Source: a virus. From it: DNA of 64,000 bases. This document shows, piece after piece, positions 13,480-56,418 of this stretch. The position numbers were made by a program, and so were the translations under genes. The number at the start of each line of letters is the position of its first letter. Position 1 is the stretch's first letter. The notes below the pieces were generated by a model. That model saw only the letters and a list, made by a program, of their open reading frames with translations, was not told the origin of the DNA and did not search any database. The stretch spans positions 207,416 through 271,415 of IMG/VR virus record IMGVR_UViG_3300042558_004148, one strand, 5' to 3'.

Positions 13480-13822
13480 AAGTCTAAAATTCTATAGAGA
13501 TCCAGATGGATGGTTTGTTGATCTACCTGAATGGGAAGGTTCTAAAGCTGATCTACAGATGGTTGCAGGAGCTGACGTATTTCTGGATATAATGTCACAG
13601 GGAGAAAATGAGGTTTATTTAACATTATCAGATACTCCAATGGATAACTGCAGCCAATTAACATTCAAAGAAATTGGGAGGTTGGAAGGATTTGAATTAG
13701 GAGAGGGAGCATGGTACGTTCTTAATGAGTATATTGGGATAGAATATAATCATGATATGTGGCTATGTGATGTCACTAAATTTGTATTTGGCGAATTTCC
13801 TAAAATAATATACTTTATATGA
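13472..13822 (+). CDS. hypothetical protein
   Basis: ORF track. Confidence 0.45.
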   Translation: MTRSLKFYRDPDGWFVDLPEWEGSKADLQMVAGADVFLDIMSQGENEVYLTLSDTPMDNCSQLTFKEIGRLEGFELGEGAWYVLNEYIGIEYNHDMWLCDVTKFVFGEFPKIIYFI

Positions 13823-23686: not shown

Positions 23687-24574
23687 ATGTACATCTTAAA
23701 TCTCACGGACAATGAAAAGTCCGACATTAAATTTCAAATCTCAAAATTCCCTGATGGACAGCAATCAGTAACAATCACTGATTGTACAAATGCATCTGAT
23801 ATATCTCATCCCGTAAAAATTAAGTCCCGTCTAAATTCTTTTAAGGATTTAGAACTTATCGTTTGTGCAACACAAGCTTTACGAGATCTTGGTACTAAAG
23901 AAATTCATTTGTATTCTCCTTATTTTGTAGGTGCTCGTTCAGATCGTAAATTCGTTCAAGGATCCACGAACTATCTAAAAAATGTAATCTGTCCTATTAT
24001 CAATTCACAAAATTTCGAATCGGTAAATGTACTTGATCCTCACTCGGACGTACTCGAAGCTTGCTTAAATAATTACGTTAAGGAAGATAATCATCGACTT
24101 GTAAAATTTGCACTACCTCCAATCGATAATAAAGATGGTGCTCAAAGAAGAGTGGTTCTTGTTTCACCTGATGCTGGGGCTTACAAAAAAATCTTTGATG
24201 TTGCTCAGAAATTCGCCATCGAAAATGTGGTTACTGCTATGAAGCATAGGGACATCGAAACTGGGAAAATCACACATACAGAAATTCCTAATATCGATCA
24301 ATATGGTGAAGATCATAAATTTGTAATTGTCGACGATATCTGTGACGGTGGAAGAACCTTCATCGAATTGGCAAAGGAGATCCGTAAACATAACGCGATT
24401 TCTGACATCTATTTAATTGTTACCCATGGAATCTTCTCAGCAGGATTAAAACCACTGAATGATGCATTCACAGGAATATTCTGCACTAATTCATATTCAG
24501 ATGTGAACGATCCTGAATTTAGCCTACGTAACGATAATGAATTACATAGACTAAAGCAACTTAACGTTTTCTAA
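23687..24574 (+). CDS. ribose-phosphate pyrophosphokinase family protein (Prs-like; candidate ADP-ribose pyrophosphokinase)
   Basis: KFPDGQQSV, YSPYFVGARSDRK (cf. PYfgYARQDRK), VLDPHSD, VVLVSPDAGAYKK and FVIVDDICDGGRTF (PRTase loop) track Prs along its whole length. Confidence 0.75.
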   Translation: MYILNLTDNEKSDIKFQISKFPDGQQSVTITDCTNASDISHPVKIKSRLNSFKDLELIVCATQALRDLGTKEIHLYSPYFVGARSDRKFVQGSTNYLKNVICPIINSQNFESVNVLDPHSDVLEACLNNYVKEDNHRLVKFALPPIDNKDGAQRRVVLVSPDAGAYKKIFDVAQKFAIENVVTAMKHRDIETGKITHTEIPNIDQYGEDHKFVIVDDICDGGRTFIELAKEIRKHNAISDIYLIVTHGIFSAGLKPLNDAFTGIFCTNSYSDVNDPEFSLRNDNELHRLKQLNVF

Positions 24575-24580
24575 AACACT

Positions 24581-25096
24581 ATGGAATACAAAGAAATAAA
24601 AGGAGATCTGATAAAACTAGCTCAGGGAGCCAGTTTTGATGTCATTGCACATGGATGTAATTGTTTTTGCCAAATGGGTGCAGGAATTGCTCCACAGATG
24701 GCAAAGGCTTTTTCTTGTAACGATCCCGAAAAATATCACGGTGAATCAACATCATTCCCGGATAAAAGAGGTGATATGTCTAAGCTAGGAAATATTGAAT
24801 CATACGCTTGGTTCGTATTTGATGAAGAAGGTAACCGCAAGAGATTAGAAGTAGTCAATGCATACACACAATACAAATATGGTAGGAATCATAAGGACGG
24901 AGATAAAAATCCGGTTGATTATGCTGCAATTGAAATGTGTATAAAAAAGATGAATTATCGATTTAAGGGTAAGCATATAGGTCTTCCTAAGATAGGTGCT
25001 GGTCTTGCTGGCGGTGATTGGGAAAGAATCAAGGGTATTATACAAAAAGAATTAAAAGATTGCAGCGTAACTGTTGTAATTTACGAACCCTCTTAA
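24581..25096 (+). CDS. Macro-domain protein (ADP-ribose binding/processing)
   Basis: GDLIKLAQGASFDVIAHGCNC...MGAGIAP and IGLPKIGAGLAGGDWERI match the macro-domain motifs. Confidence 0.7.
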   Translation: MEYKEIKGDLIKLAQGASFDVIAHGCNCFCQMGAGIAPQMAKAFSCNDPEKYHGESTSFPDKRGDMSKLGNIESYAWFVFDEEGNRKRLEVVNAYTQYKYGRNHKDGDKNPVDYAAIEMCIKKMNYRFKGKHIGLPKIGAGLAGGDWERIKGIIQKELKDCSVTVVIYEPS

Positions 25097-25106
25097 AAAC
25101 AAAAAC

Positions 25107-25295
25107 ATGGAGAGATATAAAATAACGTGCAGGATCGAAACCGAATCTTGGAGAAAAACTATCGAATGCAGAGAAATGACAATTAAGGATGGTGCATATT
25201 GTTTTTGGACAGGTGAATATGGAAACACAAATAGATTAATATGGTCATTTCCGGTGATGTTCACGATAATTGAGGCTATAGAAGAAGAAAATTAA
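25107..25295 (+). CDS. hypothetical protein
   Basis: ORF track. Confidence 0.35.
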   Translation: MERYKITCRIETESWRKTIECREMTIKDGAYCFWTGEYGNTNRLIWSFPVMFTIIEAIEEEN

Positions 25296-25303
25296 CTCTA
25301 AAA

Positions 25304-25337
25304 TTTTTTTAATACCGAATTTTTAGCCTATATTTGC
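25304..25337 (+). promoter_or_regulatory. phage promoter: TTTTTTTAATACCGAA - N9 - TATATTTG
   Basis: -7 box at ~25329..25336. Confidence 0.5.
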
Positions 25338-25374
25338 AAAACAATAATTAAAATTGATAAAATAAAGAGAAATT

Positions 25375-25719
25375 ATGGCAGCAAAATCAAAATCAGTAAA
25401 AGCATTAGATTTATTAAAATCTAACAAATCAGTTTCTGAAAGAGCAGAAAACTACATCGTATCAGTAAAACGTAACATTCAACGTGATGTTATCGATGCA
25501 TTAACTGCTAAGAAAGAATCAATGGAGGATGAGTTATTCGAATTAACTAACTTCAACTTGGAAACCGATGTTAATAAAGGTTACCAACAAATGACTAAAG
25601 AATCGGTTGAACAAAGATTCAAAAAAGTTATCGACATCGAGTATAAGTTGAAATTGACAAGTTTAGAATTAGCTTCTAAGCAAGAGTCTTTTGACAAATA
25701 CTTCGCAGATGCTGAATAA
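25375..25719 (+). CDS. hypothetical protein
   Basis: ORF track. Confidence 0.45.
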   Translation: MAAKSKSVKALDLLKSNKSVSERAENYIVSVKRNIQRDVIDALTAKKESMEDELFELTNFNLETDVNKGYQQMTKESVEQRFKKVIDIEYKLKLTSLELASKQESFDKYFADAE

Positions 25720-26257
25720 GATATCTAAAGTATTTATCAGTGCTCCGATCTCTGTTGATTGGAGCACTGTTATGGAATTTGCTTCGGTTGTTAAAGAAGC
25801 TGGTGGTAATCCACAATACTGGTATCGCGATACGGTATACAATCAAAGGTCATTCGATGCATCAAATTCAGTCATATTCATTCTTCCGGGAAATGCATGG
25901 GAAAAATCCCAGCACGGTTTACCTAAGGGTTTGAAATCCGAATTATCCCGTGCATATGCATCAGGTAAAAATATCTACATTGGTTACATTACATCAAGAG
26001 GTGAACACAACATATATTGTGCTGATAGTAATGGAATGGACATCAAAGGTATACAGGGATCATCATCAGCATTTGAAGAACAAATGACAGCAAATAAATA
26101 CGCTGAAAGAGTTATGATGAATAGCACCTATGGTGCAAATATTTGTAGCGAAATTGAATTACCATTACCTAAAGGACCTACTGGGTTTTCAGGTAGACCC
26201 GGGATCGCAGGGGTTGATGGAATTGAATTTGATGAAAGATTATTATTGATGATGTAA
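25709..26257 (+). CDS. hypothetical protein with short collagen-like GXY run and C-terminal RLLLMM motif
   Basis: The track start 25691 is TTG, so the ATG at 25709 is preferred. C-terminus ...KGPTGFSGRPGIAGVDGIEFDERLLLMM. Confidence 0.45.
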   Translation: MLNKISKVFISAPISVDWSTVMEFASVVKEAGGNPQYWYRDTVYNQRSFDASNSVIFILPGNAWEKSQHGLPKGLKSELSRAYASGKNIYIGYITSRGEHNIYCADSNGMDIKGIQGSSSAFEEQMTANKYAERVMMNSTYGANICSEIELPLPKGPTGFSGRPGIAGVDGIEFDERLLLMM

Positions 26258-26429
26258 TCATGGGGAAAGAAAAATACCATTCGTTTGATATCGAAACATA
26301 CCATGCTATGAAATATGCTGATATCGATACATATGCACTGATGTCAGAAATAATTAATGCCGCATCTCGTCCGTGTAATACAGATCCTATCGAAGAAGAA
26401 TTGGATAACAGAATCTTATTAGCTTAACC

Positions 26430-26780
26430 ATGATAACATTCAAAGTAAAAAGAACTGAAGGGGTTGGGGTTAAACCAGGATGTGGATGGATTAAATATGT
26501 AGGAAAATCTAGACTAGACGGATTTCCAATTTTTTCTACTGATTATATAGGGCGTATTACTACTGATATCATAAAAGATCACTTAATCGTTAATACTAAA
26601 CCAGGATATATTCTAGAAAATCACGAGATAGAAGGAATAGGAAGTTTAGATGGTGGAATGATCAGGTCTTTCTCCGATGATTTGGTTCCAGTTAAGCCTA
26701 TGGATTCTCCTAGCGGAACCCTATTCTATATTGATCATGTTTATGAAGATTTAGATCCACGATTGCTATTAATGATGTAA
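26430..26780 (+). CDS. hypothetical protein with C-terminal RLLLMM motif
   Basis: Ends ...DLDPRLLLMM, the same six C-terminal residues as the upstream gene. Confidence 0.45.
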   Translation: MITFKVKRTEGVGVKPGCGWIKYVGKSRLDGFPIFSTDYIGRITTDIIKDHLIVNTKPGYILENHEIEGIGSLDGGMIRSFSDDLVPVKPMDSPSGTLFYIDHVYEDLDPRLLLMM

Positions 26781-26807
26781 ATTATTGATAACTTTTGTAA
26801 ATAATTG

Positions 26808-26840
26808 TCCCGAGATTTTTTAATCTCGGGATTTTGTTTT
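26808..26840 (+). terminator. rho-independent terminator followed directly by a -7 box
   Basis: TCCCGAGAttttttaaTCTCGGGA + TTTTGTTTT; TATATTTG at ~26840..26847. Confidence 0.55.
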
Positions 26841-26864
26841 ATATTTGCTCGTAATTAAAAAAAT

Positions 26865-27512
26865 ATGAAAAATAAAAAAGAACACCTAGACATCGAGAAT
26901 CCAATGGAAATGCTTGCTGCATTTACCCAAATGATGGGTTCCGGAGGGGTCCATAGTTTTTTTGGAGGATTACCTTTCGAAGAGAAAGAGAAATATCCAC
27001 ATGATCGATTAGGTGATGGATACGAACTTCGAAAAATCGAAATGAAAGATTTAAAAGGAAATCCAGTTGATAATCGAGATAATTACTCTCATTTATATCA
27101 TAACGATCTTAAGGTTTCTAGTGAAGTATTTCGTAGAGGTGGAACTGGTGGTAAATTTAAAGATGGTTATTGTTCACTGATACATTACGTAGAAGACAAA
27201 AAGAATTCTAAAGGATTTGATTTTGGAACACATGTTATCATTAACAATTTAGGTGAAATTGTTATGGGTAGAAAGGGATTGGATTATCCTAGTCATATTG
27301 GTGGTCATCTTGGTTCGATTAATAATTACATATATGATTTGAGAAGTGGTGCTGCAATTGCTCCAAAGTCTTCAACTACAATTACAGGAACAAACTGTAT
27401 TATTGTTGAACATAGATACGATTGGTATGATAAGGAGGTTAAGTTACCATTAGGAATCTACCGCATAGATTTTCAAACGGCAGAACTTTTATTAATAGAC
27501 AGCATAAAATAA
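26865..27512 (+). CDS. hypothetical protein
   Basis: ORF track. Confidence 0.45.
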   Translation: MKNKKEHLDIENPMEMLAAFTQMMGSGGVHSFFGGLPFEEKEKYPHDRLGDGYELRKIEMKDLKGNPVDNRDNYSHLYHNDLKVSSEVFRRGGTGGKFKDGYCSLIHYVEDKKNSKGFDFGTHVIINNLGEIVMGRKGLDYPSHIGGHLGSINNYIYDLRSGAAIAPKSSTTITGTNCIIVEHRYDWYDKEVKLPLGIYRIDFQTAELLLIDSIK

Positions 27513-27525
27513 TAAATACGTAATT

Positions 27526-27936
27526 ATGAAAAAACATTATTTTGAATTAGACAAAGTAGATTCTATTACTCTAACGGGAGAAAAAGAAACAGAATATGGA
27601 TGGTTCCAAGAGATTCCATCTAGACCTAAAACATTCCTAGGAATTAAATATGGTATGCATGAAGCAATTCCAGCAGGTTGGAATGATTATATTGATAAGG
27701 ACGGAAACGAATACAATACGCATTGGAGAAAACCAGTATCGTATTTTGCAGATTATTCTTCGTACAAAGTATGCGATATCACAGAAAGAATTTATAACAA
27801 AGCACATGTAGAAATTCGTTTTGGTTATAAACAATCTTTTGGAGTTAACTTCAATGATAACACAGAGGCTCAAAAATATGTTGATGATTTAATTAACTCA
27901 TCAGAAAAACAATTTCACGTAATAGTTAATATCTAA
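27526..27936 (+). CDS. hypothetical protein
   Basis: ORF track. Confidence 0.45.
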   Translation: MKKHYFELDKVDSITLTGEKETEYGWFQEIPSRPKTFLGIKYGMHEAIPAGWNDYIDKDGNEYNTHWRKPVSYFADYSSYKVCDITERIYNKAHVEIRFGYKQSFGVNFNDNTEAQKYVDDLINSSEKQFHVIVNI

Positions 27937-27940
27937 TCAA

Positions 27941-28432
27941 ATGAAAACATACACTAAATACACATTCTTCTATAAAACACGTCACCCGTTCTCCAATTGG
28001 CATCCATGTTCATTTGAGGACGAGGAGGGAAACGAATATAATTGCTCAGAGCAATGGATGATGGCGGAAAAGGCTAAGCTATTTGGCGACGAAGAAACCA
28101 GAGAGGAAATTTTATTCTCAAAGGATCCTGGTAAACAAAAGGAGCTAGGGAGAAAGGTTAAGAATTTCAATTCTGATGTCTGGACAGAAAATGCTAAAAA
28201 AATTGTTTACAATGGATGTCATTTGAAATTCACTCAGAATCCAAAATTACTAAAAACATTATTGGACACCGAAGGAACCTTACTTGTTGAAGCTTCACCC
28301 TACGATAAAATCTGGGGTATAGGTCTTGGCGAGGATGACCCTAAAATACACGATCCTAAAAATTGGAGAGGTACAAATTGGCTAGGCGAAGTTCTAACTG
28401 ATCTTAGAGATAATCTATTAAAATCTAAATAA
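27941..28432 (+). CDS. NADAR (YbiA/DUF1768) domain protein
   Basis: FSNWHPCSF.....YNCSEQWMMAEKAKLF....W......KF.QNP.L...LL.T....LVEASPYDKIWGIG is the NADAR signature. Confidence 0.7.
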   Translation: MKTYTKYTFFYKTRHPFSNWHPCSFEDEEGNEYNCSEQWMMAEKAKLFGDEETREEILFSKDPGKQKELGRKVKNFNSDVWTENAKKIVYNGCHLKFTQNPKLLKTLLDTEGTLLVEASPYDKIWGIGLGEDDPKIHDPKNWRGTNWLGEVLTDLRDNLLKSK

Positions 28433-28433
28433 A

Positions 28434-28682
28434 ATGGCAACATCACCAGAATACTTAAACAAAGCTTTCCAGAGGGAAGTTGATGAATTTGAACTTAAAT
28501 TGGATTCTCAACTGGAGAAAAAAACCGTAGTAAAAGGAGGTTCGGTTTCTATAGACATTCCAAATGGAATGTCACAAAGACATTTCGGACTACTTGAATC
28601 CAAATATATTTCCGCTGGATGGAGTTCAGTTAAATGGAATAGTGATCAGAGAGAAGGTATGTGGTTAACTTTCACCTACTAG
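28434..28682 (+). CDS. hypothetical protein
   Basis: ORF track. Confidence 0.4.
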   Translation: MATSPEYLNKAFQREVDEFELKLDSQLEKKTVVKGGSVSIDIPNGMSQRHFGLLESKYISAGWSSVKWNSDQREGMWLTFTY

Positions 28683-28686
28683 GTCA

Positions 28687-29196
28687 ATGAGCAAATTAGT
28701 CTATATAGGATCGCCATATTCAAATCAGGATCCAGCTGTTAGAGAGGAAAACTTTAATATAGTTTCCAGACTAGCTGCAAGAGAATGCTCAAATGGAAAA
28801 GTTGCTTTCTCGCCAATAACATATGGGCATACTCTTATTGAGTTTAAACATATGCCAACCAATTGGGAATTCTGGAAATCATTTTGTCTTGCATTTCTAG
28901 AACATGCTGATGAGCTACTGGTTTATAAAATGCCAGGATGGGAGAATTCAAGGGGTCTTGCCGAAGAGATACTATTTGCAACCGAGAGGAATATAAAAAT
29001 CACTTGGTTGGAATATGATCAATACGAAAACGTTCCCGTAGATGAAAAGAGAGAATTCATATCAGCGAATGGAGAATGGGAGAATTCATGGTCCGATGAT
29101 AACTGGGTACGTAAGGACTCAGATAACAAAGAAGCAAATACTGGAATAGATACCGACCATCTATATAGATCACTTAAATTAAAAAGTGAGTTGTAA
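28687..29196 (+). CDS. DUF1937-like protein (nucleoside 2-deoxyribosyltransferase-like fold)
   Basis: VYIGSPYS...SPI.YGH...PGWENSRGLAEEILFA resembles the DUF1937 / N-deoxyribosyltransferase-like pattern. Confidence 0.4.
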   Translation: MSKLVYIGSPYSNQDPAVREENFNIVSRLAARECSNGKVAFSPITYGHTLIEFKHMPTNWEFWKSFCLAFLEHADELLVYKMPGWENSRGLAEEILFATERNIKITWLEYDQYENVPVDEKREFISANGEWENSWSDDNWVRKDSDNKEANTGIDTDHLYRSLKLKSEL

Positions 29197-29230
29197 TTTT
29201 TTTATCCCGTATAAATTTAATATCTTTACA
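29196..29230 (+). promoter_or_regulatory. phage promoter: TTTTTTTATCCCGTA - N9 - TATCTTTA
   Basis: Canonical copy of the recurring upstream element; ATG at 29248. Confidence 0.5.
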
Positions 29231-29247
29231 AAACTAAAAATATAAAT

Positions 29248-30765
29248 ATGTTTAAACCCACAAGTTTATTTTACACTGATGGCTATAAAATTGGCCACAA
29301 GAAAATGTTAGCTCCCGGAACAACCCGTTTGTACGGTACTTGGATTCCACGAAGCACAAAGCATGCTCCTGAGGGAGTAGATAAAATAGTATCATTCGGT
29401 CAACAATTGGTAGTGAAATGGTTACATGATGAATTCGAAGAGAATTTTTTCAAACAACCAATTAGCGTTGCTACTAAATTTTCCGATGATATGTCAAAGT
29501 ATTTAGGACTTCCGTTCGATGGTTCACACTTCTCGGAATTACATCATCTGGGTTACTTGCCTATTAGAATTAAAGCTTTACCTGAAGGTATCGAAACAAA
29601 CCCTAACATCCCTCACATGACATTTGTGAATACTGTGGATGGATTCGGATGGTTAACATTATATTTGGAGACCATCATATCTTCATTGGCATGGAAACCA
29701 GCAACCTCTGCTACACTTGCACTAAGATACCGAAGAAATTTGGTTGAATGGGTTACGAAAACTGATCCGGCTAACGCTTGGTTAATTCCTTTCCTATGTC
29801 ACGACTTCTCTGCTAGAGGTTTATCTCCATGGGATATGTTATCTAGTGGTTTAGGACACGCTACGTCATTCAGAGGATCTGACACTATTGTTTGTATTCC
29901 TGCAGCACGATACTTCTATAACGAGCCAGAAAACGATGTCTGCATCAATTCTGTTAACGCTTCTGAACACTCAGTATCAACAACAAAGATATTTACTGTA
30001 GGAGAACAACAAATGATCTCCGATTGGTTAACTGAATTCCCTACAGGAATCCTATCAATTGTATCTGACACTTTTGATTTATGGAAACTTATCACGGAAT
30101 ATCTTCCTGCAAATAAAGAGCAAATCATGTCACGTGATGGAAAACTTGTTATCCGTCCTGACTCTGGTGATCCAGTAGATATTATCTGTGGTTCAGTGGA
30201 TGTGTTTAAGCACAATGATCCTAATTCACCACAAAGAAAAGGTGTAGTTGAATTACTTTGGGATATCTTCGGTGGAACAATCAACGAACAAGGATACAAA
30301 GTTCTTGATCCACATATTGGTGCGATCTACGGGGATTCAATCACAGTTGGTCGTCAGATTCAAATCTATGAAAGATTAGAAGAAAAAGGTTTTGCTTCAA
30401 CAAACATCGTGTTGGGAATCGGATCATTCACTTATCAAATGAATACTAGAGATACTTTGGGATTCGCTGCTAAAGGAGCTTGGTTCGAAGTAGAAGAACC
30501 TATATTTGGTGAATTTTTAGACCAAAATCTAAATACTGAAAAGGTTGCTTATGACATCTATAAAGATCCAATCACTGACGACGGAACTAAAAAATCATTG
30601 AAGGGATTAGTTCAAGTTGTAATGGAAGGCGATGAATATCATGTTAATACTCAATGTACTTGGGAACAGGAGGAGCAGGGCTTTTTACAAACAATCTATG
30701 AAGAGGGAAGATTCGTTAACGAAACAACTCTTGAGGAAGTACGTAACAAATTAAATTCTTTATAA
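29248..30765 (+). CDS. nadV: nicotinamide phosphoribosyltransferase family protein (Nampt/NadV-like; candidate nicotinamide ADP-ribose transferase)
   Basis: LFYTDGYKIGHKKMLAPGTTRLYGTWIPRS matches the Nampt N-terminus (tDsYK.tH..yP..t..yS....R). NASEHSVSTT matches AAEHST. Length 505 aa. Confidence 0.75.
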   Translation: MFKPTSLFYTDGYKIGHKKMLAPGTTRLYGTWIPRSTKHAPEGVDKIVSFGQQLVVKWLHDEFEENFFKQPISVATKFSDDMSKYLGLPFDGSHFSELHHLGYLPIRIKALPEGIETNPNIPHMTFVNTVDGFGWLTLYLETIISSLAWKPATSATLALRYRRNLVEWVTKTDPANAWLIPFLCHDFSARGLSPWDMLSSGLGHATSFRGSDTIVCIPAARYFYNEPENDVCINSVNASEHSVSTTKIFTVGEQQMISDWLTEFPTGILSIVSDTFDLWKLITEYLPANKEQIMSRDGKLVIRPDSGDPVDIICGSVDVFKHNDPNSPQRKGVVELLWDIFGGTINEQGYKVLDPHIGAIYGDSITVGRQIQIYERLEEKGFASTNIVLGIGSFTYQMNTRDTLGFAAKGAWFEVEEPIFGEFLDQNLNTEKVAYDIYKDPITDDGTKKSLKGLVQVVMEGDEYHVNTQCTWEQEEQGFLQTIYEEGRFVNETTLEEVRNKLNSL

Positions 30766-30767
30766 TT

Positions 30768-31031
30768 ATGGCAATGGAAAAAGTATGGCAATGGCTTGCA
30801 ATCCTGGTAATTGCAACATTAACTGGGACATTAGTTCATCATGTAGTATCACCAAAACACGTGGTTAGATATGAACTAGGGATTGGGTATGATGGAATTC
30901 CAGCGATTACCGCAGATATCGAGAACTCGGCAGATGATCGCATTCATCTATCAAAAGAAGTGAGCTGGAGCGATGCAGTTCATATGGTTGATTCATTAAA
31001 TATGAATTTACGTAAACATCGTATAAAATAA
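30768..31031 (+). CDS. small membrane protein (NfeD-like position upstream of flotillin)
   Basis: N-terminal TM helix WLAILVIATLTGTL; immediately precedes the SPFH/flotillin gene. Confidence 0.35.
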   Translation: MAMEKVWQWLAILVIATLTGTLVHHVVSPKHVVRYELGIGYDGIPAITADIENSADDRIHLSKEVSWSDAVHMVDSLNMNLRKHRIK

Positions 31032-31055
31032 ATTTTATTAAAAATCAAAAATTAA

Positions 31056-32948
31056 ATGGAAATTCTATTATCTTATGCCTGGGTATTAATCCCAATTTTA
31101 GCTCTCTTGTTTTACAAGTTCACGCTACGTTTCTTCTTCGGTATGGTTATTATACCAGAAGACAAAATCGGTTTAGTTACCAAAAAATTCGTTTTGTTCG
31201 GTGCAAACAAATCTCTTCCTGATGGGAAAATTATTGCACTAAATGGAGAACCTGGTTACCAGGCGGATCCACTAGCTCCTGGACTTTATTGGGGTTATTG
31301 GGTGTGGCAATATTCAATTGATCAATCTCCATTGACTGTAATTCCGAAAGGTAAGATTGGTTTGCTATCTGCTAAAGACGGTGCACAATTACCTACTGGA
31401 TCTATTCTTGCCCGAAATATTGAATGTGATAATTATCAAGACACTAGGGCATTCCTATTAAATGGCGGACAGCGAGGTAAACAGGTTGGTTACTTAAACA
31501 ATGGGGTTTATCGTATCAATCCATATTTATTTGAAATATTCTTAGCTGATATCACAAGCATCGAAGATGGGATGGTCGGTGTAGTAACGGCATTAGACGG
31601 AACTCCTCTAGAACTAGCTTCCATTGCAGGATCAGTAATTGAAGGTCATAATAATTTCCAAGATTTTGATAAGTTTTTATCAAAGGGAGGTCAAAGAGGT
31701 ATGCAAATCCAGGTTATTCAAGCTGGTTCTTATTCTCTTAACCCTTGGGCAGTTGAGGTAGAGAAAAAAGAAATGACTTCTATTCCAATCGGTCATGTCG
31801 GTGTGGTAATATCATATGTTGGAGATGAAGGTGAGGACACTACTGGTGACGGATTCAAACACGGTAATATTGTTAAGAAGGGGCAAAAAGGAGTTTGGGC
31901 TTCGGTATTAGACCCTGGTAAATATGCAATTAATCCTTACACACAAAAAATTGAAATCGTACCTACAACCAATCTAGTTCTTAACTGGGCAACTGCTAGA
32001 AACGAATCACATAATTTGGATCAGAACTTAAGTACAATTACAGTTCGATCTCAAGATGGATTCCCATTCAACTTGGACGTATCACAAATCATTCACGTAC
32101 CTTCAACTGAAGCTCCTAAGGTAATTGCTCGATTTGGTTCAATGTCAAACCTAGTATCTCAGGTATTAGAACCTACAATTGGTAACTACTTCAGAAACTC
32201 AGCTCAGGATTCGGATGTTATTTCTTTCCTATCAACTAGACAGCAAAGACAAACTGCTGCTAAGGAAAAGATCAGTCAGGTACTGGAGGAATATAATGTT
32301 CATGCTGTTGATACTCTTATCGGAGATATCGTTCCACCAGCAGAGTTAATGAAAACCCTAACAGATCGTAAGATTGCATCGGAGGAGGAAGTAACTTTTG
32401 ATACTCAACGTAAAGCACAGGATAAACGTAAAACTTTAGAATCTGCTAAAGCACTTGCTGATATGCAGGGACAAATGGTTCAGGCACAACAATCTGTAGA
32501 AATCTCCGAAAGAGAAGCTCAAGCAGCGGTTAAAAAATCTGAAGGTGAAGCTAAGGCGATAGAATTAAAAGCTGGTGCAAACGCAAAAGCCAAAATCTTA
32601 AATGCTGAAGCTGAAGCGAAACAAATTCAATTAACAGGTACAGCGGAAGCTACTAAGATTGAAGCGATCGGTAAAGCAACAGCGGAAGCTTACGATTTAC
32701 AGGTTAAAGCAATGGGTGAAGCCAATTTCGGTCAATTAAAAGTAGTTGAATCGATTGGGGTGAACAATATCAAGATTATCCCTGAAATTCTTATCACAGG
32801 TGGAGAAAGCGGATCTAATGGTCCAATCTCGGGATTACTTGGGATGGAATTATTAAGTCAGGTTACTGCTAGAAAAAATGCAAATGCATCTACTACAGAA
32901 ACACCATTGAGCTCAATAACTCAGGAAAGTCCGAAAAAAGATAAATAA
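31056..32948 (+). CDS. flotillin-like SPFH-domain membrane protein
   Basis: N-terminal TM helix, a central SPFH-like region and a C-terminal Ala/Glu-rich coiled coil (AEAEAKQIQLTGTAEATKIEAIGKATAEA) typical of flotillin/YqiK. Confidence 0.6.
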   Translation: MEILLSYAWVLIPILALLFYKFTLRFFFGMVIIPEDKIGLVTKKFVLFGANKSLPDGKIIALNGEPGYQADPLAPGLYWGYWVWQYSIDQSPLTVIPKGKIGLLSAKDGAQLPTGSILARNIECDNYQDTRAFLLNGGQRGKQVGYLNNGVYRINPYLFEIFLADITSIEDGMVGVVTALDGTPLELASIAGSVIEGHNNFQDFDKFLSKGGQRGMQIQVIQAGSYSLNPWAVEVEKKEMTSIPIGHVGVVISYVGDEGEDTTGDGFKHGNIVKKGQKGVWASVLDPGKYAINPYTQKIEIVPTTNLVLNWATARNESHNLDQNLSTITVRSQDGFPFNLDVSQIIHVPSTEAPKVIARFGSMSNLVSQVLEPTIGNYFRNSAQDSDVISFLSTRQQRQTAAKEKISQVLEEYNVHAVDTLIGDIVPPAELMKTLTDRKIASEEEVTFDTQRKAQDKRKTLESAKALADMQGQMVQAQQSVEISEREAQAAVKKSEGEAKAIELKAGANAKAKILNAEAEAKQIQLTGTAEATKIEAIGKATAEAYDLQVKAMGEANFGQLKVVESIGVNNIKIIPEILITGGESGSNGPISGLLGMELLSQVTARKNANASTTETPLSSITQESPKKDK

Positions 32949-32966
32949 TCTAAATCTGGATATATT

Positions 32967-32994
32967 AAACCCCATGAGAAATCATGGGGTTTTT
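32967..32994 (+). terminator. rho-independent terminator
   Basis: AAACCCCATGAgaaaTCATGGGGTTTTT. Confidence 0.65.
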
Positions 32995-33042
32995 CGTGGA
33001 ACAAAACCCTTCTATTTTCTATAAATAATAAAAGATTACCCG

Positions 33043-33663
33043 ATGAACATAAATGTATTTTTTGATAAAATTTTTTATATTAATTTGGATAAGGACACCG
33101 ACAGGGATTCCAAAATGATTGAGCAATTCAAACGATATAACATAACTAACTACGAGCGTGTTTCGGGTACAGTTTGGGAATTGGTTCCTGACATTTCATT
33201 TTGGAGAAATTTCAACCAGGATCAAACAACTGAAAAATACGTTTTGGGCAGTCTCGGATGCAGAAATTCACATTGGAGAATTACTAAAATGGCAATGGAG
33301 AGAGGATATAACAAAATATTAATTTTGGAAGACGATGTTATCTTTACCGAGGACCCACATGAAATTTTAGAGAATAATAAAAATAAATTGGATAATTGGG
33401 ACATGCTTTATTTCGGTGGAGCGGAGGAGGATAATTTCGATGGGCAGATCGTTGGCGCATATGCATATTGTTTAAATAGGAAGTTAATAGAGGAAATATA
33501 TTATATGCTACCAACTTCCGGTATGGAAGTAGATAACTTTTATGCAAAGGTGCTGTTTCATATGAGCTACAATTACAGTAAATCAGGTAGGTATGATATA
33601 AAGAAGATCGAACCTTTTAATACAATCAAAGTCGATTTCGAATTTATCTCAAATATTAGATAA
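33043..33663 (+). CDS. glycosyltransferase family 25 (LPS/LOS-type) protein
   Basis: N-terminal FDKIFYINLDKDTDR matches the GT25 signature (…YvINL……R). Confidence 0.6.
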   Translation: MNINVFFDKIFYINLDKDTDRDSKMIEQFKRYNITNYERVSGTVWELVPDISFWRNFNQDQTTEKYVLGSLGCRNSHWRITKMAMERGYNKILILEDDVIFTEDPHEILENNKNKLDNWDMLYFGGAEEDNFDGQIVGAYAYCLNRKLIEEIYYMLPTSGMEVDNFYAKVLFHMSYNYSKSGRYDIKKIEPFNTIKVDFEFISNIR

Positions 33664-33666
33664 AAT

Positions 33667-34356
33667 ATGGAAACAAACCCTTTTAATTTTTTCGATAAGA
33701 TCTTTTATATCAACCTAGATGATAGGCCTGAAAGAAAGTTACATATTGAAAATGAATTGGAAAAATATGGAATCGTTGCTGAGAGATTTCCAGCAATACA
33801 ATTAACGCAGGAGCAAAACGAGATTTTAAAAAGTGAGGGCTGCATGTTTAAAAAAGATGAAAGACCCGAATACTCAAGATTTGCAAAATCCTGTGCGTTA
33901 TCGCACCTTCATATTATACTAAGATCCAAATTAATGGGATACAAGAACGTTTTAATTCTTGAGGATGATGTTATATTCAGGGAAGATATTTTGGAGGAAT
34001 TAAAAAAATCACTTGATGATTTAGAAAAAGAATCCAGATGGGACATGTTTTATATCGGATGCAATCCATTCCTATATGAGAAGGTAACCGACAATTTATC
34101 AATTTCATTAGGAGCATATGCAGCACACGCATATGCTGTGAATAGTCATTTCTATGATACCATATTAAATATACCATTCAGGATTCTTCCAATTATAGAT
34201 GTGTATTATTATAATCTATCTACGAACCCATTATATAAATTATATATGTCGCCACATAATTTAGCTTGGCAGATACCTAGTTATTCGACTCTGGAGGAGA
34301 TGGACGTTGACTATTATCCAATTATAGAGGAGAGATATAATCTGAATGGAATCTAA
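33667..34356 (+). CDS. glycosyltransferase family 25 protein (tandem paralogue)
   Basis: FFDKIFYINLDDRPERK; LILEDDV shared with the upstream paralogue. Confidence 0.6.
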   Translation: METNPFNFFDKIFYINLDDRPERKLHIENELEKYGIVAERFPAIQLTQEQNEILKSEGCMFKKDERPEYSRFAKSCALSHLHIILRSKLMGYKNVLILEDDVIFREDILEELKKSLDDLEKESRWDMFYIGCNPFLYEKVTDNLSISLGAYAAHAYAVNSHFYDTILNIPFRILPIIDVYYYNLSTNPLYKLYMSPHNLAWQIPSYSTLEEMDVDYYPIIEERYNLNGI

Positions 34357-34381: not shown

Positions 34382-34891
34382 ATGATAACATTAAATAAAC
34401 CAGATGACCAATTTATAACGGAATCCGATTCAATAAAGATATTTCTAGCGGGATCTATCGATATGGGATCTTCAGAAGATTGGCAAACAGAAATATACAA
34501 CCGATTAGTAACAATCGAAGCTGATAATGCAGCAAATATCGAAGTTTATAATCCCAGAAGAGATTCATGGGATAGTACCTGGACACAGGAACAATCAAAT
34601 TCTGAGTTCAATTATCAGGTTAATTGGGAGCTTAATAACATAGAAGACTCAGATATAGTTTTCTTTAATATATTACCAGATTCAAAAAGTCCAATCACAT
34701 TAATGGAACTTGGCCTATGTGCGGGTAAGGAGAAAAAAGCTATAGTTTGCTGTCCTGATGGATTCTACAGAAAGGGAAATGTTGATGTTGTTTGTACAAG
34801 ATATGGTATACAACAATACACAGATATAGATTCGGCATTTGGTGCATTATTAACGGAATTGAATAAAATCGAAAGAAGTAAAATTAAATAA
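34382..34891 (+). CDS. nucleoside 2-deoxyribosyltransferase-like / DNPH1-like protein
   Basis: IKIFLAGSID and SDIVFFNILPDSKSPITLMELGLCAGKEKKAIV match the Nuc_deoxyrib_tr pattern (kiYlAG ... D.GT.fElG.a...gKpv). Confidence 0.45.
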   Translation: MITLNKPDDQFITESDSIKIFLAGSIDMGSSEDWQTEIYNRLVTIEADNAANIEVYNPRRDSWDSTWTQEQSNSEFNYQVNWELNNIEDSDIVFFNILPDSKSPITLMELGLCAGKEKKAIVCCPDGFYRKGNVDVVCTRYGIQQYTDIDSAFGALLTELNKIERSKIK

Positions 34892-34898
34892 AATTAAA

Positions 34899-35804
34899 GT
34901 GATGAAAGCAATAAAAGAAATCGTACAGTATATAGAAACTGATAATCCAACCGGGACATTAAGTATACTGGAGCCAAATTACTCATCCGTAAGTGAGGAA
35001 GGCATATTACCAATACAATTAAACACCAAGAATTTCCATTTGGAAGACCATAGGATCAAATCAGTAATGAACAAAGAAACTATTGCTGATATCATGGCTA
35101 TGCACGGTATAGATTCAAGAGCGATGACAAAAAATACAATCGATAATGAAGCTGAAGTTAACCTAGAGAAAAAAATCTATGGGATGCTAGAAGAATCAGG
35201 AAGAAATAACTACCGAAGTGAATGGAGCAAAACTAGATGGTTCATTTATAATTGGTTGGGTTATTATCCTAAGGTTAGAATATTAGCAACAGAGTCTTCA
35301 CCTGGGAGTCTTTTAAAGCATATACATATAGCAGGAAGTAAAATAGCAAACAAGTCAAGAGGTGGAGGTGCTGATTTTATTATAGTTAGCCAATCAATAG
35401 GATCACTGCTATCGGATCTTAGCCAATTCTCTTTCAATATGGAAGAAGCAACAAATTTCATAGAGAACGGATCATCAATCAGACAAATAGGTGTTCTTGC
35501 TGGAAGATATAGGGTACTTATAAATCCTTTACTTAGTAATGATATAGATCAAACCAGTATTGTAATCGGAGCATCCACAAAAGAAGGACAGGAAGGTGTC
35601 TATCATATTGCTATGCTTCCTACCTATGATGAAATCGAGAACGAAAACTACGCAACTCTAAGAACTGAAATCATCACGGTGAGGTCACAAAGAATGGCAA
35701 CAATAAAAACCAACAACTCTGATTTCAAATACATAACAATTCCGCTTACTAAATCTAGACACAATATAATAACTCACCTATATAAAAAAATATTTAAAAA
35801 ATAA
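34899..35804 (+). CDS. hypothetical protein
   Basis: ORF track. Confidence 0.45.
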   Translation: MMKAIKEIVQYIETDNPTGTLSILEPNYSSVSEEGILPIQLNTKNFHLEDHRIKSVMNKETIADIMAMHGIDSRAMTKNTIDNEAEVNLEKKIYGMLEESGRNNYRSEWSKTRWFIYNWLGYYPKVRILATESSPGSLLKHIHIAGSKIANKSRGGGADFIIVSQSIGSLLSDLSQFSFNMEEATNFIENGSSIRQIGVLAGRYRVLINPLLSNDIDQTSIVIGASTKEGQEGVYHIAMLPTYDEIENENYATLRTEIITVRSQRMATIKTNNSDFKYITIPLTKSRHNIITHLYKKIFKK

Positions 35805-35807
35805 GAG

Positions 35808-36929
35808 ATGATTATAAATAAAAAAAGCCAAAATAACCTATCAGGATTTTATATAGTCTATGAGGGATCAACGAATCTAGAAAAATCAGGATGGTACGGA
35901 ATATCGCATCTGATGGAGCATTTAGTATGTAAGTCATTTGATCATTTTCAGGAAGATCTTGATCGTGATGGTATTGAATGGAATGCTTACACAAGCGGCA
36001 ATGAAATAGTTTTCTATCTTACTGGTCTTGACGAGAGAGTAAATAAGTGGAAATATAAATTTGTGGAGTTGTTAAGCAAATTTAAAGTTACCGAGGAAGA
36101 ATTTGAAAATGAAAGAAATATAGTTCTTGAGGAATATATGGACTGCTTCAATGATCAAACTCAGGCTCACTTCCTTAATCTATCAAGAAAACTTTTTAAA
36201 GATTATGATCCTATTGGGCTAAGATCGGATTTAGAGGCTCTTAAGTTTAGTGATTGTTTAGAATACTTTGAATTACAATATTCAAAACCTAGCAAAATTA
36301 TAAACATCTCAAAAAACCACGATTACATCAACGATGAGCTGGTATTTGCTGATACGGAGATTAAGAACGATAAAGAATATGGGAATCATGAGGTTGAATT
36401 GGAATTAAATAATGAATTCAAGGACAAGACATCAATCATATTATTGAGTCCGATGATCAGAGAAGACTTTGCTTATGTTTCTTTCATAAATTCCATGTTG
36501 GGATTAGGTTTAAAATCTCCATTATACCAGGAAATCAGAGAAAAAAGAGGTCTTGCTTATTATGTTCATTGCTATCAGCCAAGAATATATGATAAAGGAA
36601 TGGTTGTTATCTCAACACAGGTATCAAACAAGAACGTAGAGGCGGTTATTAATGCAGTTAAGGAGGTTATAGCAAATCCAGATACCTATTTAACTCAGGA
36701 AAGATTTGATGTCGTTAAGGACTACTTTACTGTCAGAAAAGAAAAGAACGAAATCTTATCTTACGAGAAAGCCATCGGAACAATATTACAACCAGAGGGA
36801 TGGTCAATGTATGACATATTAGAAACTGCCACCATGGATAAAATCAAAGAGGTGTATGAGAAATATTACAATTTTGAAAACTTCTATATTTCAAACGATA
36901 AGGAGGAATTTGTAAAAGAATCAAATTAA
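35808..36929 (+). CDS. M16 (insulinase/pitrilysin) family peptidase-like protein
   Basis: Inverted zinc motif HxxEH (GISHLMEHLVCKS) near the N-terminus. Confidence 0.5.
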   Translation: MIINKKSQNNLSGFYIVYEGSTNLEKSGWYGISHLMEHLVCKSFDHFQEDLDRDGIEWNAYTSGNEIVFYLTGLDERVNKWKYKFVELLSKFKVTEEEFENERNIVLEEYMDCFNDQTQAHFLNLSRKLFKDYDPIGLRSDLEALKFSDCLEYFELQYSKPSKIINISKNHDYINDELVFADTEIKNDKEYGNHEVELELNNEFKDKTSIILLSPMIREDFAYVSFINSMLGLGLKSPLYQEIREKRGLAYYVHCYQPRIYDKGMVVISTQVSNKNVEAVINAVKEVIANPDTYLTQERFDVVKDYFTVRKEKNEILSYEKAIGTILQPEGWSMYDILETATMDKIKEVYEKYYNFENFYISNDKEEFVKESN

Positions 36930-36938
36930 TATAGACAC

Positions 36939-37286
36939 ATGAAAGTTATCATTGCTGGTGGTAGGGGTTTTTCAGATTTTCAATTATTATATGCTAAGTG
37001 TGAAGAAATTTTAGCTAATCAAACGGAAGTAGAGATTGTTAGCGGTACTGCAAAGGGAGCAGACAAAATGGGAGAACACTATGCTAAATTAAAAGGATTT
37101 ACGGTTAAGCAATTCCCTGCGGAATGGGACAAATATGGAAAATCAGCAGGATATATTAGAAATAAGGATATGGCGGATTACGCTGATATCCTTATTTCAT
37201 TCTGGGATGGAGAATCAAAAGGAACAAAGCATATGATAGATCTTGCAACGGAGAGAAATCTATCAATTCACATAATAAATTATTAA
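36939..37286 (+). CDS. SLOG/LOG-like Rossmann-fold protein (DUF2493-like)
   Basis: MKVIIAGGRGF....VEIVSGTAKGADKMGEHYA......FPAEWDKYGKSAGYIRNKDM......ISFWDGESKGT. Confidence 0.4.
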   Translation: MKVIIAGGRGFSDFQLLYAKCEEILANQTEVEIVSGTAKGADKMGEHYAKLKGFTVKQFPAEWDKYGKSAGYIRNKDMADYADILISFWDGESKGTKHMIDLATERNLSIHIINY

Positions 37287-37289
37287 AAA

Positions 37290-37511
37290 ATGGACAATTT
37301 TATTAAATTAAATATCGTAAAGGAACCGGATGGTTCGATACTAGAGATAAATCCAGCATTCATAGAAAGCATGGAGAGCGATAATAGCACAACAAAAATA
37401 GTGACCTTTAGCGGTAGATTATACGAGGTTAAGGAAAGCATCGGAGAAATCAGAAAGCTGTCTTCAATAAAGAAAAAATTCAATTATCAATATCCTACGA
37501 TGAATAGTTAA
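37290..37511 (+). CDS. hypothetical protein
   Basis: ORF track. Confidence 0.4.
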   Translation: MDNFIKLNIVKEPDGSILEINPAFIESMESDNSTTKIVTFSGRLYEVKESIGEIRKLSSIKKKFNYQYPTMNS

Positions 37512-38052
37512 TTCTACCAGCAACTTTGGACGCTAGTTCAGAGATCACACCAGAAGAAAGAGATGATAAATCAGCGGAAGATATAGATACAGTGTCAGGA
37601 TCAACAGAAGCTTTTATCTTTACCTCCAAATCATCCACTAAATTTATATCATAGGAGATATCAGCACCATAAGTATCAATGCCTATATAATCGGAAGGAT
37701 TCTTTTCGAAAACTGAGTAGATGACACCAGCTATATCATCTCTGGTAAATTTAGGGCCAGTAGCCTCAGGATCAGCAGTAATATTATCTATTACATCATC
37801 CGCTATTCTCTCGCCATCAATGTGGATATCATAGTCATCAACATCCTCGCTTACCTCAGCATTAACTTTAACCTCTCCCTTACTATCATAATAATCAATT
37901 TTAATTGGAATTTTGTTGCTATTTATGACAAAGTAGTCTTCACTATTTGAATGTATTTGGTCAAATCCTTCAATTATCTGGGAAATCGTATATCCATCGT
38001 TCGATGACTCGTTGATTTTATGTTCGTTATTAAAGGGTTTTAGATGTTTCAT
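37495..38052 (-). CDS. hypothetical acidic protein
   Basis: ORF track; D/E-rich. Confidence 0.45.
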   Translation of the reverse strand: MKHLKPFNNEHKINESSNDGYTISQIIEGFDQIHSNSEDYFVINSNKIPIKIDYYDSKGEVKVNAEVSEDVDDYDIHIDGERIADDVIDNITADPEATGPKFTRDDIAGVIYSVFEKNPSDYIGIDTYGADISYDINLVDDLEVKIKASVDPDTVSISSADLSSLSSGVISELASKVAGRINYSS

Positions 38053-38103
38053 TTCAAATACATTTATATTATTCTATATATCGGTGATGATATATAATGT
38101 AAT

Positions 38104-38550
38104 ATGATAAACTTAGTTAAATTCTCAGACTTTTTAAATTCTTCGGATGAAGTAAATGAAGCTTACTCACCAGGATACACACCTGAATGGAAGGACGGCG
38201 GACTAGTTCTAATTAAGGGTATACCTCTTAAAGACGGAAAACCAAGGCTATATGGGGCTAAATTAAAGAGGATCATAAAGGACGATAGAGGAAATTTCTT
38301 CAGAGCTATCCTATATCCCGAATTATACATAATTAGAAAGAATGAGAGCGGGAACTACGTTGCCCCTAGAGTTGACATTAATGATAATACATTAAAGAAG
38401 TCAGTAGGAATTTCTGGATTTAACGTTGCTCTTAATTCTAAAAGCGGTAAAACACCAATGTGGAAAACATCTGTAACCGAAACAAGTTTTCCTAGATTCC
38501 TGAATGACTGGAGATCATCTCTGGATTCCTGGGATGAATTTAATTACTAG
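38104..38550 (+). CDS. hypothetical protein
   Basis: ORF track. Confidence 0.45.
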   Translation: MINLVKFSDFLNSSDEVNEAYSPGYTPEWKDGGLVLIKGIPLKDGKPRLYGAKLKRIIKDDRGNFFRAILYPELYIIRKNESGNYVAPRVDINDNTLKKSVGISGFNVALNSKSGKTPMWKTSVTETSFPRFLNDWRSSLDSWDEFNY

Positions 38551-39116
38551 GATTTACCAAGAATATCATTTATAACCCAATCGTTCCTTTCCGACATTGG
38601 AATATCACTAAGATCAATATATGGGATATTTTCAAGATCCATATAATTTCTTATCACAGAATCTAGTTTTATTATCTCCTCTTTATTATGGAACCTTATA
38701 CCGTCTTGCTCATCATCTTCCAGGAATGGCGGAACGTAATATATTTTATGCCACTGGCCCAAAGATTTAAGGATCTCCTTTTGTATATGATTTATGGTAG
38801 CAATATCCTTAAGAGAAAGAGGATGTTTAAAGGTTGATCTGAAATAGAAGTAATTTAATATACTGCTAGAATCACAGACTATCCAATCCTTAGATCCAAG
38901 ATACATTCTTTCCCTACCTATTTGTTTATAAAATATAACTATCTGATCAGTTGGTGTGTCAGGAATACCCCATTCTGCTATGTAGTCAGTAGCAGCTTCA
39001 CCAACGAAGATAGAATTCTTTTTCCTTATCTTAAGACCATGATGAACTGATGTTGCTAAAGTTGACTTCCCCGATGATGGAGCACCCATAACACAAATAA
39101 GTTTTGATTCCTTCAT
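38547..39116 (-). CDS. P-loop NTPase (AAA_28/NadR-kinase-like; putative nucleoside/nucleotide kinase)
   Basis: Walker A LICVMGAPSSGKSTLA at the N-terminus. Small at 189 aa. Confidence 0.45.
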   Translation of the reverse strand: MKESKLICVMGAPSSGKSTLATSVHHGLKIRKKNSIFVGEAATDYIAEWGIPDTPTDQIVIFYKQIGRERMYLGSKDWIVCDSSSILNYFYFRSTFKHPLSLKDIATINHIQKEILKSLGQWHKIYYVPPFLEDDEQDGIRFHNKEEIIKLDSVIRNYMDLENIPYIDLSDIPMSERNDWVINDILGKS

Positions 39117-43118: not shown

Positions 43119-43148
43119 CACCAGAGTCTTTTTAAGACTCTGGTTTTT
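43119..43148 (+). terminator. rho-independent terminator
   Basis: ACCAGAGTCTttttaAGACTCTGGT + TTTTTATT. Confidence 0.65.
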
Positions 43149-54447: not shown

Positions 54448-54463
54448 TCTCACCTTTTTTATA
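54430..54463. terminator. bidirectional rho-independent terminator between convergent genes
   Basis: AAAAAAGGTGAGATttaATCTCACCTTTTTTAT; A-run and T-run flank the hairpin. Confidence 0.65.
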
Positions 54464-56384: not shown

Positions 56385-56418
56385 AAAAAAGGTCCGGCAA
56401 AAGTCGGACCTTTTTATT
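56385..56418 (+). terminator. rho-independent terminator
   Basis: AAAAAAGGTCCGGCaaaaGTCGGACC + TTTTTATT. Confidence 0.7.

Follow-up and report, generated by a model that had tools for sequence, protein, structure and literature searches.

SPFH-domain proteins that build membrane cages are a current structural topic, and their functions in bacteria are mostly not known. According to a 2026 vault paper, canonical SPFH proteins have a membrane motif and no repeats, and the vault protein MVP has copies of a 'unique' MVP domain placed before its SPFH domain, with no described membrane motif (PMC13100048). Homologues of MVP that are detectable at the sequence level are known from bacteria and from two gut phages (10.1101/872010; 10.1101/2023.11.10.566534), and SPFH-domain proteins, the function of which is not known, have been noted earlier in some jumbo phages (PMC7760394, PMC6034870). 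A review of jumbo phages (PMC7824862) and two papers on huge phages (PMC7162821, PMC9723584) mention neither SPFH nor flotillin nor band 7. The subject of this work is a 630-amino-acid (aa) protein encoded, directly downstream of an 87-aa open reading frame (ORF), in a stretch of 64,000 nucleotides (nt) from the IMG/VR virus record IMGVR_UViG_3300042558_004148 (positions 207,416–271,415; hereafter the window, the positions of which serve as coordinates below). A first-pass annotation of the window, made from the sequence alone, had read the two genes as a phage-borne flotillin of the YqiK type with an NfeD-like partner. The present analysis identifies the 630-aa protein, with high confidence, as an SPFH-family membrane protein with a four-fold repeat which, as modelled, combines a transmembrane (TM) anchor with MVP-like repeats before the SPFH core. 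In the literature, no description was found of an architecture composed of a TM anchor, self-derived MVP-like repeats and an SPFH core, nor of the wide conservation of this architecture in Bacteroidota or its presence in huge phages.

Domain architecture and repeat modules

The domain on the detection of which the first-pass annotation had staked its reading is present: the 630-aa protein matches the Pfam family Band_7 (PF01145) over residues 242–452 with 94.3 bits (cutoff 23.6; E 1.2e-26). The SPFH-like core proposed there holds for this part of the chain but not for the first 240 residues, which are extra repeats rather than plain core. Both ORFs and the N-terminal TM helix are as that annotation described them (Table 1), and the helix is kept in the homologues. 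The long Ala/Glu-rich helical region was recovered as well: the richness in Ala, Glu, Lys and Gln extends across residues ~450–550 and falls within a single modelled helix (429–553), which at ~125 residues is shorter than the EA-rich region of true flotillins. The hydrophobic C-terminal segment that follows is conserved (in the family alignment A1, invariant at P576 and nearly so at K573, L579, I580 and G582), in contrast to the tail (residues 601–630), which has only 4% identity to the bacterial copies. The net charge around the TM helix, taken over 158 homologues, is -0.25 on the N-terminal flank and +0.71 on the C-terminal flank, a bias that weakly favours a cytoplasmic location for the bulk of the protein.

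The region between the TM helix and the core consists of four modules, R1–R4, the last of which corresponds, in the Pfam alignment, to positions 1–40 of Band_7. Profile–profile comparison of sub-alignments with hhalign connects these modules with one another (R2–R3 at 99% probability and E 8e-18, R1–R2 at 93%, R2–R4 at 79% and R3–R4 at 72%) and finds no resemblance of any of the four to the SPFH core. Because R4, the start of Band_7, is homologous to R1–R3, this comparison shows that the N-terminal extension was built by duplicating the first SPFH beta-subdomain in tandem. No family in Pfam spans the repeat unit.

The number of modules varies among the relatives. An exhaustive search of 1.84 billion representatives yielded 2769 relatives, 493 of them at E<=1e-30, and some of these reach 1200–1800 aa and match in 5–10 separate stretches. 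In the long relatives, a motif recurs with a strict 73-residue period (in P0280, for example, at positions 230, 303, 376 and onward), and a hidden Markov model of the repeat, applied to 143 representatives, counts 1–13 copies in each. In two proteins of ~1800 aa, P0280 and P0283, 13 copies of the 73-aa repeat and the SPFH core are joined by a von Willebrand A domain at the C-terminus.

Predicted fold and relationship to SPFH cages, vaults and flotillins

A first AlphaFold run, on an alignment of 50 sequences (>=58% identity), gave a pLDDT of 58, and its fold matches were used as a lead only; a second run, on 72 sequences reaching down to 29% identity, gave a pLDDT of 83.6 and a pTM of 0.61, with values above 90 across most of residues 1–470. 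The second model, on which the structural claim rests, places the TM helix (2–28) before four modules of approximately five strands each, with a short helix in R2 and R3, and continues with the alpha/beta core, the long helix, a helix at 555–569, a low-confidence stretch and a helix at 591–609.

When this model is compared with known structures using Foldseek, cage SPFH proteins are matched with E between 1e-11 and 1e-6, the HflK/C-type structures 7wi3 and 9cz2 among them. The top rank is taken by MVP chains (E 1e-11), which are aligned over 640–810 columns covering the repeats, the shoulder and the cap helix, compared with only ~350 columns for the classical SPFH proteins; the low-confidence first model produces the same ranking, with MVP first. 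In the prediction, the four beta-modules fold like the repeat array of MVP, and the parts follow one another in the order seen in MVP, that is, an array of small beta-sandwich repeats, an SPFH-like shoulder and a long cap helix. As a further point in common, repeat number varies within the family of the window protein. The differences are that here there are four repeats of ~64–74 aa, compared with nine of ~55 aa in MVP, that these repeats are demonstrable duplicates of the protein's own first SPFH beta-subdomain, and that a TM helix occupies residues 1–30, whereas MVP has no described membrane motif (PMC13100048). The published viral MVPs also differ from the window protein in that they were recovered by PSI-BLAST from human MVP and hence form a distinct, sequence-recognisable family. 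The likeness to MVP is one of predicted architecture and fold; homology is not demonstrated.

With the classical SPFH cage proteins (prohibitin, erlin, HflK/C, stomatin and QmcA), the window protein shares the Band_7 domain, the N-terminal membrane anchor, the alpha/beta core, a long wall helix and the hydrophobic C-terminal segment, and the modelled succession of alpha/beta SPFH fold and long helix is that of the solved cage proteins. It departs from them in the three added beta-modules (~64–74 aa; up to 13 in relatives) and has neither an NfeD partner, as in QmcA–YbbJ, nor a paired paralogue, as in HflK/HflC.

The relationship to flotillins is looser. The window protein resembles flotillins, YqiK and Bacillus subtilis FloT (SPFH2) in the TM or membrane-associated N-terminus, the SPFH domain and the Ala/Glu-rich helix, and differs from them in lacking the Flot domain and a YqiJ/YuaF-type partner and in carrying the extra N-terminal repeats. 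The assignment to the flotillin/YqiK type did not survive dedicated searches: Pfam Flot (PF15975) has no match in the 630-aa protein at E<=1 (Escherichia coli YqiK, the positive control, matches at 6.4e-41), NCBIfam FloT scores 10 bits, no match at a cutoff of 700, and hhalign of the family alignment against E. coli YqiK gives a non-significant 17% probability over 20 coiled-coil columns. The best sequence-profile match in the PDB is Flotillin-2 (residues 236–350; E 5e-4), in the helix only, and the 'YqiK' names attached to relatives in databases are automatic JGI COG-level labels. With the Flot, FloT and YqiK tests all negative, a YqiK/FloT-type flotillin was rejected, and, judged by sequence, the protein is best described as a member of a separate SPFH subfamily, a flotillin only loosely.

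Orthologues in Bacteroidota and relatives in huge phages

In a scan of one genome per prokaryotic species, relatives of the 630-aa protein were found at at least 578 loci. The best 80 of these are full-length orthologues with 60–64% identity, located in complete chromosomes or large chromosomal contigs of Flavobacterium (many species), Chitinophagaceae, Spirosoma, Pedobacter, Mucilaginibacter, Fluviicola and others. In two Flavobacterium genomes examined, the orthologue stands alone among unrelated housekeeping genes (those for a pseudouridine synthase, a dihydrolipoyl-dehydrogenase-like protein, an aminotransferase and a metallophosphoesterase). By its sequence relationships, the 630-aa gene is a host-type Bacteroidota gene carried by a huge phage; the reading of the first-pass annotation had included neither this host-type character nor the four-fold repeat nor the vault-like fold. 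Two 'bacterial' matches, L019 and L055, come from contigs of metagenome-assembled genomes (MAGs) assigned to Methylophilus and Synechococcus, outside Bacteroidota; L055 clusters away from the main bacterial clade, and both may be phage contigs mis-binned into MAGs.

The gene is indeed phage-borne. An identical copy of the protein is also found, with unchanged gene order, on metagenomic contigs of up to 373 kb. Relatives with 72–84% identity come from IMG/VR viral contigs, the largest of which has 434 kb; for those with 50–65% identity, the sources are the uncultured phage LR756502.1 (642 kb) and viral contigs, the largest with 675 kb. The rarity of such genes in phages, also asserted at first pass, holds among cultured phages, where 8 of the 50,697 deposited genomes in INPHARED match, one of them closely; the matches other than LR756502.1 come from Vibrio phages and have <=25% identity. 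A megablast search of the same INPHARED set with the 6-kb SPFH region gave no nucleotide match, so that there is no close cultured or annotated relative. A midpoint-rooted neighbour-joining tree of 158 sequences places the bacterial copies together in a single compact clade and distributes the phage copies over at least five deeper ones; the window's own clade has 56 members, most of them 72–100% identical to the window protein. Whichever the direction of transfer, the gene has long resided in these phages and is strongly conserved there.

Conservation is uneven along the chain. In the SPFH core, the window protein has 85% identity to the Bacteroidota copies (92% among bacteria), which points to strong purifying selection. 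The identity of the window protein to the bacterial copies is 58–59% in the helix, 55–58% in R2/R3 and 4% in the tail, compared with 57–87% for these parts among bacteria.

The window itself contains small, tightly packed genes, mainly on the + strand, and also encodes a Gp23-like protein, an RNA ligase, Thg1, NADAR, NAMPT, SLOG and nucleoside-deoxyribosyltransferase (NDT)-like proteins and a PvuRts1I-like nuclease. Shine-Dalgarno-like motifs precede the start codons of only 3 of the 75 ORFs (4%), a depletion relative to the 12% found at random positions, and the leaders of the + strand genes are A-rich. Shine-Dalgarno motifs are typically missing in Bacteroidota and their phages, and the combination of depletion and A-rich leaders points to a Bacteroidota-style translation initiation. 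Al-Shayeb et al. predicted Bacteroidetes hosts for every phage genome over 634 kb, and the 642-kb relative falls among the phages with such predicted hosts (PMC7162821). Given the viral contigs of up to 675 kb, the gene content, the Shine-Dalgarno depletion and this host prediction, the window is part of a huge phage that most likely infects Bacteroidota.

Gene neighbourhood and possible roles in infection

The stop codon of the NAMPT (nicotinamide phosphoribosyltransferase) gene is separated by 2 nt from the 87-aa ORF, and the latter by 24 nt from the SPFH gene, which is followed after 19 nt by a hairpin with an 11-bp perfect stem (AAACCCCATGA-GAAA-TCATGGGGTTT, then more T's). The folding energy of this hairpin is -17.2 to -18.4 kcal/mol (z = -2.55), a value equalled by 1 of 200 shuffles. 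Under a strict definition (perfect stem of >=8 bp, >=4 G-C pairs and a T-rich tail), the + strand of the window has four such sites, each just past the end of an ORF, and 20 shuffles have 0 each; the strong terminator reported at first pass is one of the four. It was not reported by a generic terminator scanner, probably due to the A-tract that extends the stem into the T-tract, and was identified by a custom scan and folding. The short gaps together with the downstream terminator argue that the SPFH gene belongs to one transcription unit with NAMPT, ending at its own terminator.

Table 1. Features of the SPFH locus and neighbouring genes (positions in the window; residues of the 630-aa protein)
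Feature	Residues	Position	Strand	Basis or remark
87-aa small protein ORF		30768–31031	+	ORF list
630-aa SPFH-family membrane protein ORF		31056–32948	+	ORF list
TM helix (signal anchor)	1–30	31056–31145	+	Kyte-Doolittle 19-residue maximum 2.14 at 1–19; modelled helix 2–28
Four tandem beta-modules	31–305	31146–31970	+	R1–R4; R4 = start of Pfam Band_7
R1	31–94
R2	95–167
R3	168–241
R4	242–305
Alpha/beta SPFH core	306–428	31971–32339	+	most conserved part; within Pfam Band_7
Long Ala/Glu/Lys/Gln-rich helix (coiled-coil or cage-wall type)	429–553	32340–32714	+	model, composition
Short helix, hydrophobic segment NIKIIPEILITGG, variable tail	554–630	32715–32948	+
Intrinsic-terminator hairpin with T-tract		32967–32996	+	folding and strict scan
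NAMPT		29248–30765	+	Pfam NAPRTase 4.5e-30, PHROG_448 2e-157
PRPP-synthetase-like		23687–24574
NADAR		27941–28432
DUF1937/NDT-like		28687–29196
Nuc_deoxyri_tr2		34382–34891
YAcAr SLOG		36939–37286
AAA_28/NadR-like kinase		38547–39116	-
Tandem family-25 glycosyltransferases (two genes)		33043–34356	+
Gp23-like protein, 301 aa		34899–35804	+	T4 Gp23 profile, E 4e-11
RNA ligase with PHA02142 OB domain		2944–4083	+
PvuRts1I-like endonuclease with SRA domain		13819–14679	+	Pfam 1.5e-36 and 1e-34
Thg1-family tRNA-His guanylyltransferase		20065–20922	+

Of the 83 viral SPFH loci, 31 have NAMPT, the end of which generally lies <100 nt upstream of SPFH; in most relatives from the window's clade the order is NAMPT, directly followed (gap <100 nt) by SPFH and then by an NDT-like gene. 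This synteny is limited to one phage clade and missing in bacteria, and the co-location with NAD salvage is treated here as an accessory-island effect unless shown otherwise. A cluster of NAD, nucleotide-salvage and ADP-ribose genes surrounds the SPFH gene (23687–30765 and 34382–39116) and is probably an island for NAD regeneration or counter-defence. Two tandem family-25 glycosyltransferase genes separate the SPFH terminator from the NDT-like gene; among the 83 related phage loci, they are limited to those of the phage's own strain, L002 and L003, and look like a recent insertion. The similarity of the Gp23-like protein to the T4 Gp23 profile is limited to the middle of the latter (149–307 of 376), and with 301 aa the protein does not reach the length of a normal major capsid protein; its gene, followed by that of an M16-family peptidase, has counterparts with 27–37% identity downstream of SPFH in 15 of the 83 phage loci.

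Farther away, the Thg1-family enzyme and the RNA ligase may serve tRNA repair; no tRNA genes were found in the window. PvuRts1I-type enzymes cleave DNA with hydroxymethylated or glucosylated cytosine, and the PvuRts1I-like endonuclease could act against competing phages with modified DNA. Other strong perfect-stem terminators are located at 6843–6864, 43120–43144, 54430–54460 (bidirectional) and 56386–57391, the 64 kb having four of this kind on the + strand and three on the - strand. The + strand contains no strict terminator between 6864 and 32967, which suggests very long transcription units.

The reading preferred here, held with moderate confidence as a whole, is that the phage encodes a host-type SPFH scaffold that forms a cage and acts as a helper in infection. 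That the 630-aa protein forms a membrane-anchored cage is probable, by analogy, because the same elements build the closed dome cages of prohibitin, erlin, HflK/C, stomatin, QmcA and flotillin, and lateral assembly is expected because every structurally characterised relative behaves in this way; the helper role is tentative. The inner membrane of the host, probably at its cytoplasmic side, would be the site where many protomers join laterally to form a dome or cage around a patch of membrane and the membrane proteins within it, with the repeats extending the wall so that the cage would be taller than the classical SPFH cages. The phage copy, co-transcribed with the NAD-salvage gene NAMPT, would supplement or replace the single-copy orthologue of the host during a long, resource-heavy infection and would keep or re-purpose the membrane compartment, possibly so as to shield or regulate a membrane protease or transporter or to stabilise the membrane. 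Supplementing or replacing the host scaffold is ranked first, as the most likely role, and antagonism or hijacking second.

Several observations weigh against this reading. Cage formation is deduced from family membership only, and the topology from a weak charge bias only; the C-terminal closure region is modelled at low confidence. A search for a conserved cellular operon partner or client in the two Flavobacterium genomes gave no functional clue, and the phage synteny with NAMPT and NDT, restricted to one clade, indicates no client either. The rooting of the midpoint-rooted tree is uncertain, so that it does not resolve whether the gene moved from host to phage or from phage to host. With respect to MVP, the global TM-scores are low (0.2–0.4), as the chains are long, elongated and bent differently; Pfam Vault and MVP_shoulder have no match at E<=10 in the N-terminal region, the long relatives or single repeats, and the repeat profile has no MVP match in the PDB. 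All sequence-level tests being negative, sequence homology to MVP was ruled out as a claim, and what is claimed is limited to structural resemblance.

Antagonism, although it ranks second, is unlikely. Here the phage copy would co-assemble with the host orthologue or displace it, poisoning or re-wiring a membrane function, with membrane-based defence, superinfection by other phages or protease-dependent turnover of phage proteins as examples of targets. The 85% identity of the SPFH core to the host-type protein makes mixed oligomers conceivable, the divergence of the helix, R2/R3 and tail would fit an altered assembly or partner specificity, and the island is rich in likely counter-defence functions (NAMPT, NADAR, SLOG/YAcAr and the PvuRts1I-like nuclease). 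Moreover, HflK/C-type SPFH cages control FtsH, which decides the stability of phage lambda CII. However, faster divergence is the norm for phage genes and does not require neofunctionalisation, PADLOC gives no defence-family match, and we know of no defence system built on this SPFH protein. A reading of the locus as a defence system was rejected, the single PADLOC hit being a spurious match to Cas13b (E 0.022).

A structural virion protein, or else a captured host gene drifting as a passenger in an accessory region, is improbable. SPFH-domain proteins have been detected by mass spectrometry in the virions of some jumbo phages (PMC7760394, PMC6034870), and the Gp23-like gene lies 2 kb downstream; yet those virion proteins are not close relatives (the INPHARED matches at <=25% identity in Vibrio phages, LR756502.1 excepted), and a TM anchor with a membrane-cage fold suits the host membrane better than a capsid. 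A drifting passenger would hardly have become as old and conserved in phages as the 56-member clade of mostly 72–100% identical proteins and the several deeper phage clades indicate.

The remaining alternative depends on the 87-aa protein, which contains a single TM helix (Kyte-Doolittle 19-residue maximum of 1.84 at residues 10–28). Among 5.8 billion proteins, its homologues amount to eight clusters with 74–98% identity, compared with thousands for the SPFH protein, and further relatives with 46–49% identity are encoded at two other loci (L089 and L102). The gene is real, its product keeping the length, the TM helix and a ~55-residue domain down to 46% identity. Pfam and profile scans assign the protein to no family. 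Of the 83 phage SPFH loci, 5 (from three lineages) have its ORF, in each case with NAMPT on one side and the SPFH gene on the other, and the 77 bacterial loci all lack it, so that it does not co-occur with the SPFH gene across the family.

As with NfeD, YqiJ and YuaF, the gene for a small membrane protein here directly precedes an SPFH gene on the same strand; the 87-aa protein differs from these partners in having one TM helix rather than several and in being confined to a few phage lineages. The NfeD-like partner of the first-pass annotation found no backing: NfeD (PF01957), YqiJ_N and YqiJ_OB have no match in Pfam searches at E<=10 with 10 family members, hhalign of the family with YqiJ gives a probability of 0.02%, and the profile retrieves no NfeD-type chain from the PDB at E<=10. 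Beside the bacterial SPFH orthologue, no gene for an NfeD-like or small membrane protein was found in the two Flavobacterium genomes. The last 20 residues read as an amphipathic helix, so that the soluble part of ~58 aa would have room for approximately three strands, not for a five-stranded OB barrel. Hinderhofer et al. found NfeD partners only with SPFH1, SPFH2 and SPFH5 (PMC2636767), and the absence of one here is therefore normal. The 87-aa protein is a recent lineage-specific add-on rather than a defining partner; in the few lineages where it occurs, it may interact with the cage, for the function of which it is presumably dispensable. A canonical YqiJK/FloT–NfeD flotillin operon in a phage, with the 87-aa protein as a minimal NfeD that nucleates or regulates assembly, is the least probable alternative: the yqiJ–yqiK-like spacing, the Flotillin-2 helix match and the constant position of the conserved 87-aa ORF speak for it, and the missing Flot, FloT, YqiK, NfeD and YqiJ_OB signals, the unsuitable soluble part, the absence of the ORF from 78 of the 83 phage and all 77 bacterial loci, and the lack of NfeD partners in most SPFH subfamilies (PMC2636767) speak against it.

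Within the preferred reading of a host-type, cage-forming scaffold, a more specific and speculative version, itself unlikely, is that the protein is a membrane-anchored prokaryotic counterpart of the vault, a tall 'half-vault' dome with its height set by the number of repeats (1–13 in relatives). Equally speculatively, the TM helix would plant the repeat array in the inner membrane, and huge phages would build a membrane-attached compartment in infection; since human vaults have been solved with ADP-ribose, ADP and PARP4, such a compartment could be linked to the flanking NAD and nucleotide-salvage genes. If this is true, the protein would bridge classical SPFH cages and MVP as a living intermediate and would show MVP-type repeats arising by duplication of the first SPFH beta-subdomain. 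Independently of the half-vault, the origin of the repeats as duplicates of the N-terminal SPFH beta-subdomain suggests an evolutionary route to vault-type walls. The retention of the gene in several deep clades of 300–675 kb Bacteroidota phages indicates that these phages bring their own scaffold for managing the membrane organisation of the host, a function to which the papers on jumbo and huge phages cited above (PMC7824862, PMC7162821, PMC9723584) give no consideration, and the single-gene, strongly conserved variant in cultivable Flavobacterium offers a tractable system.

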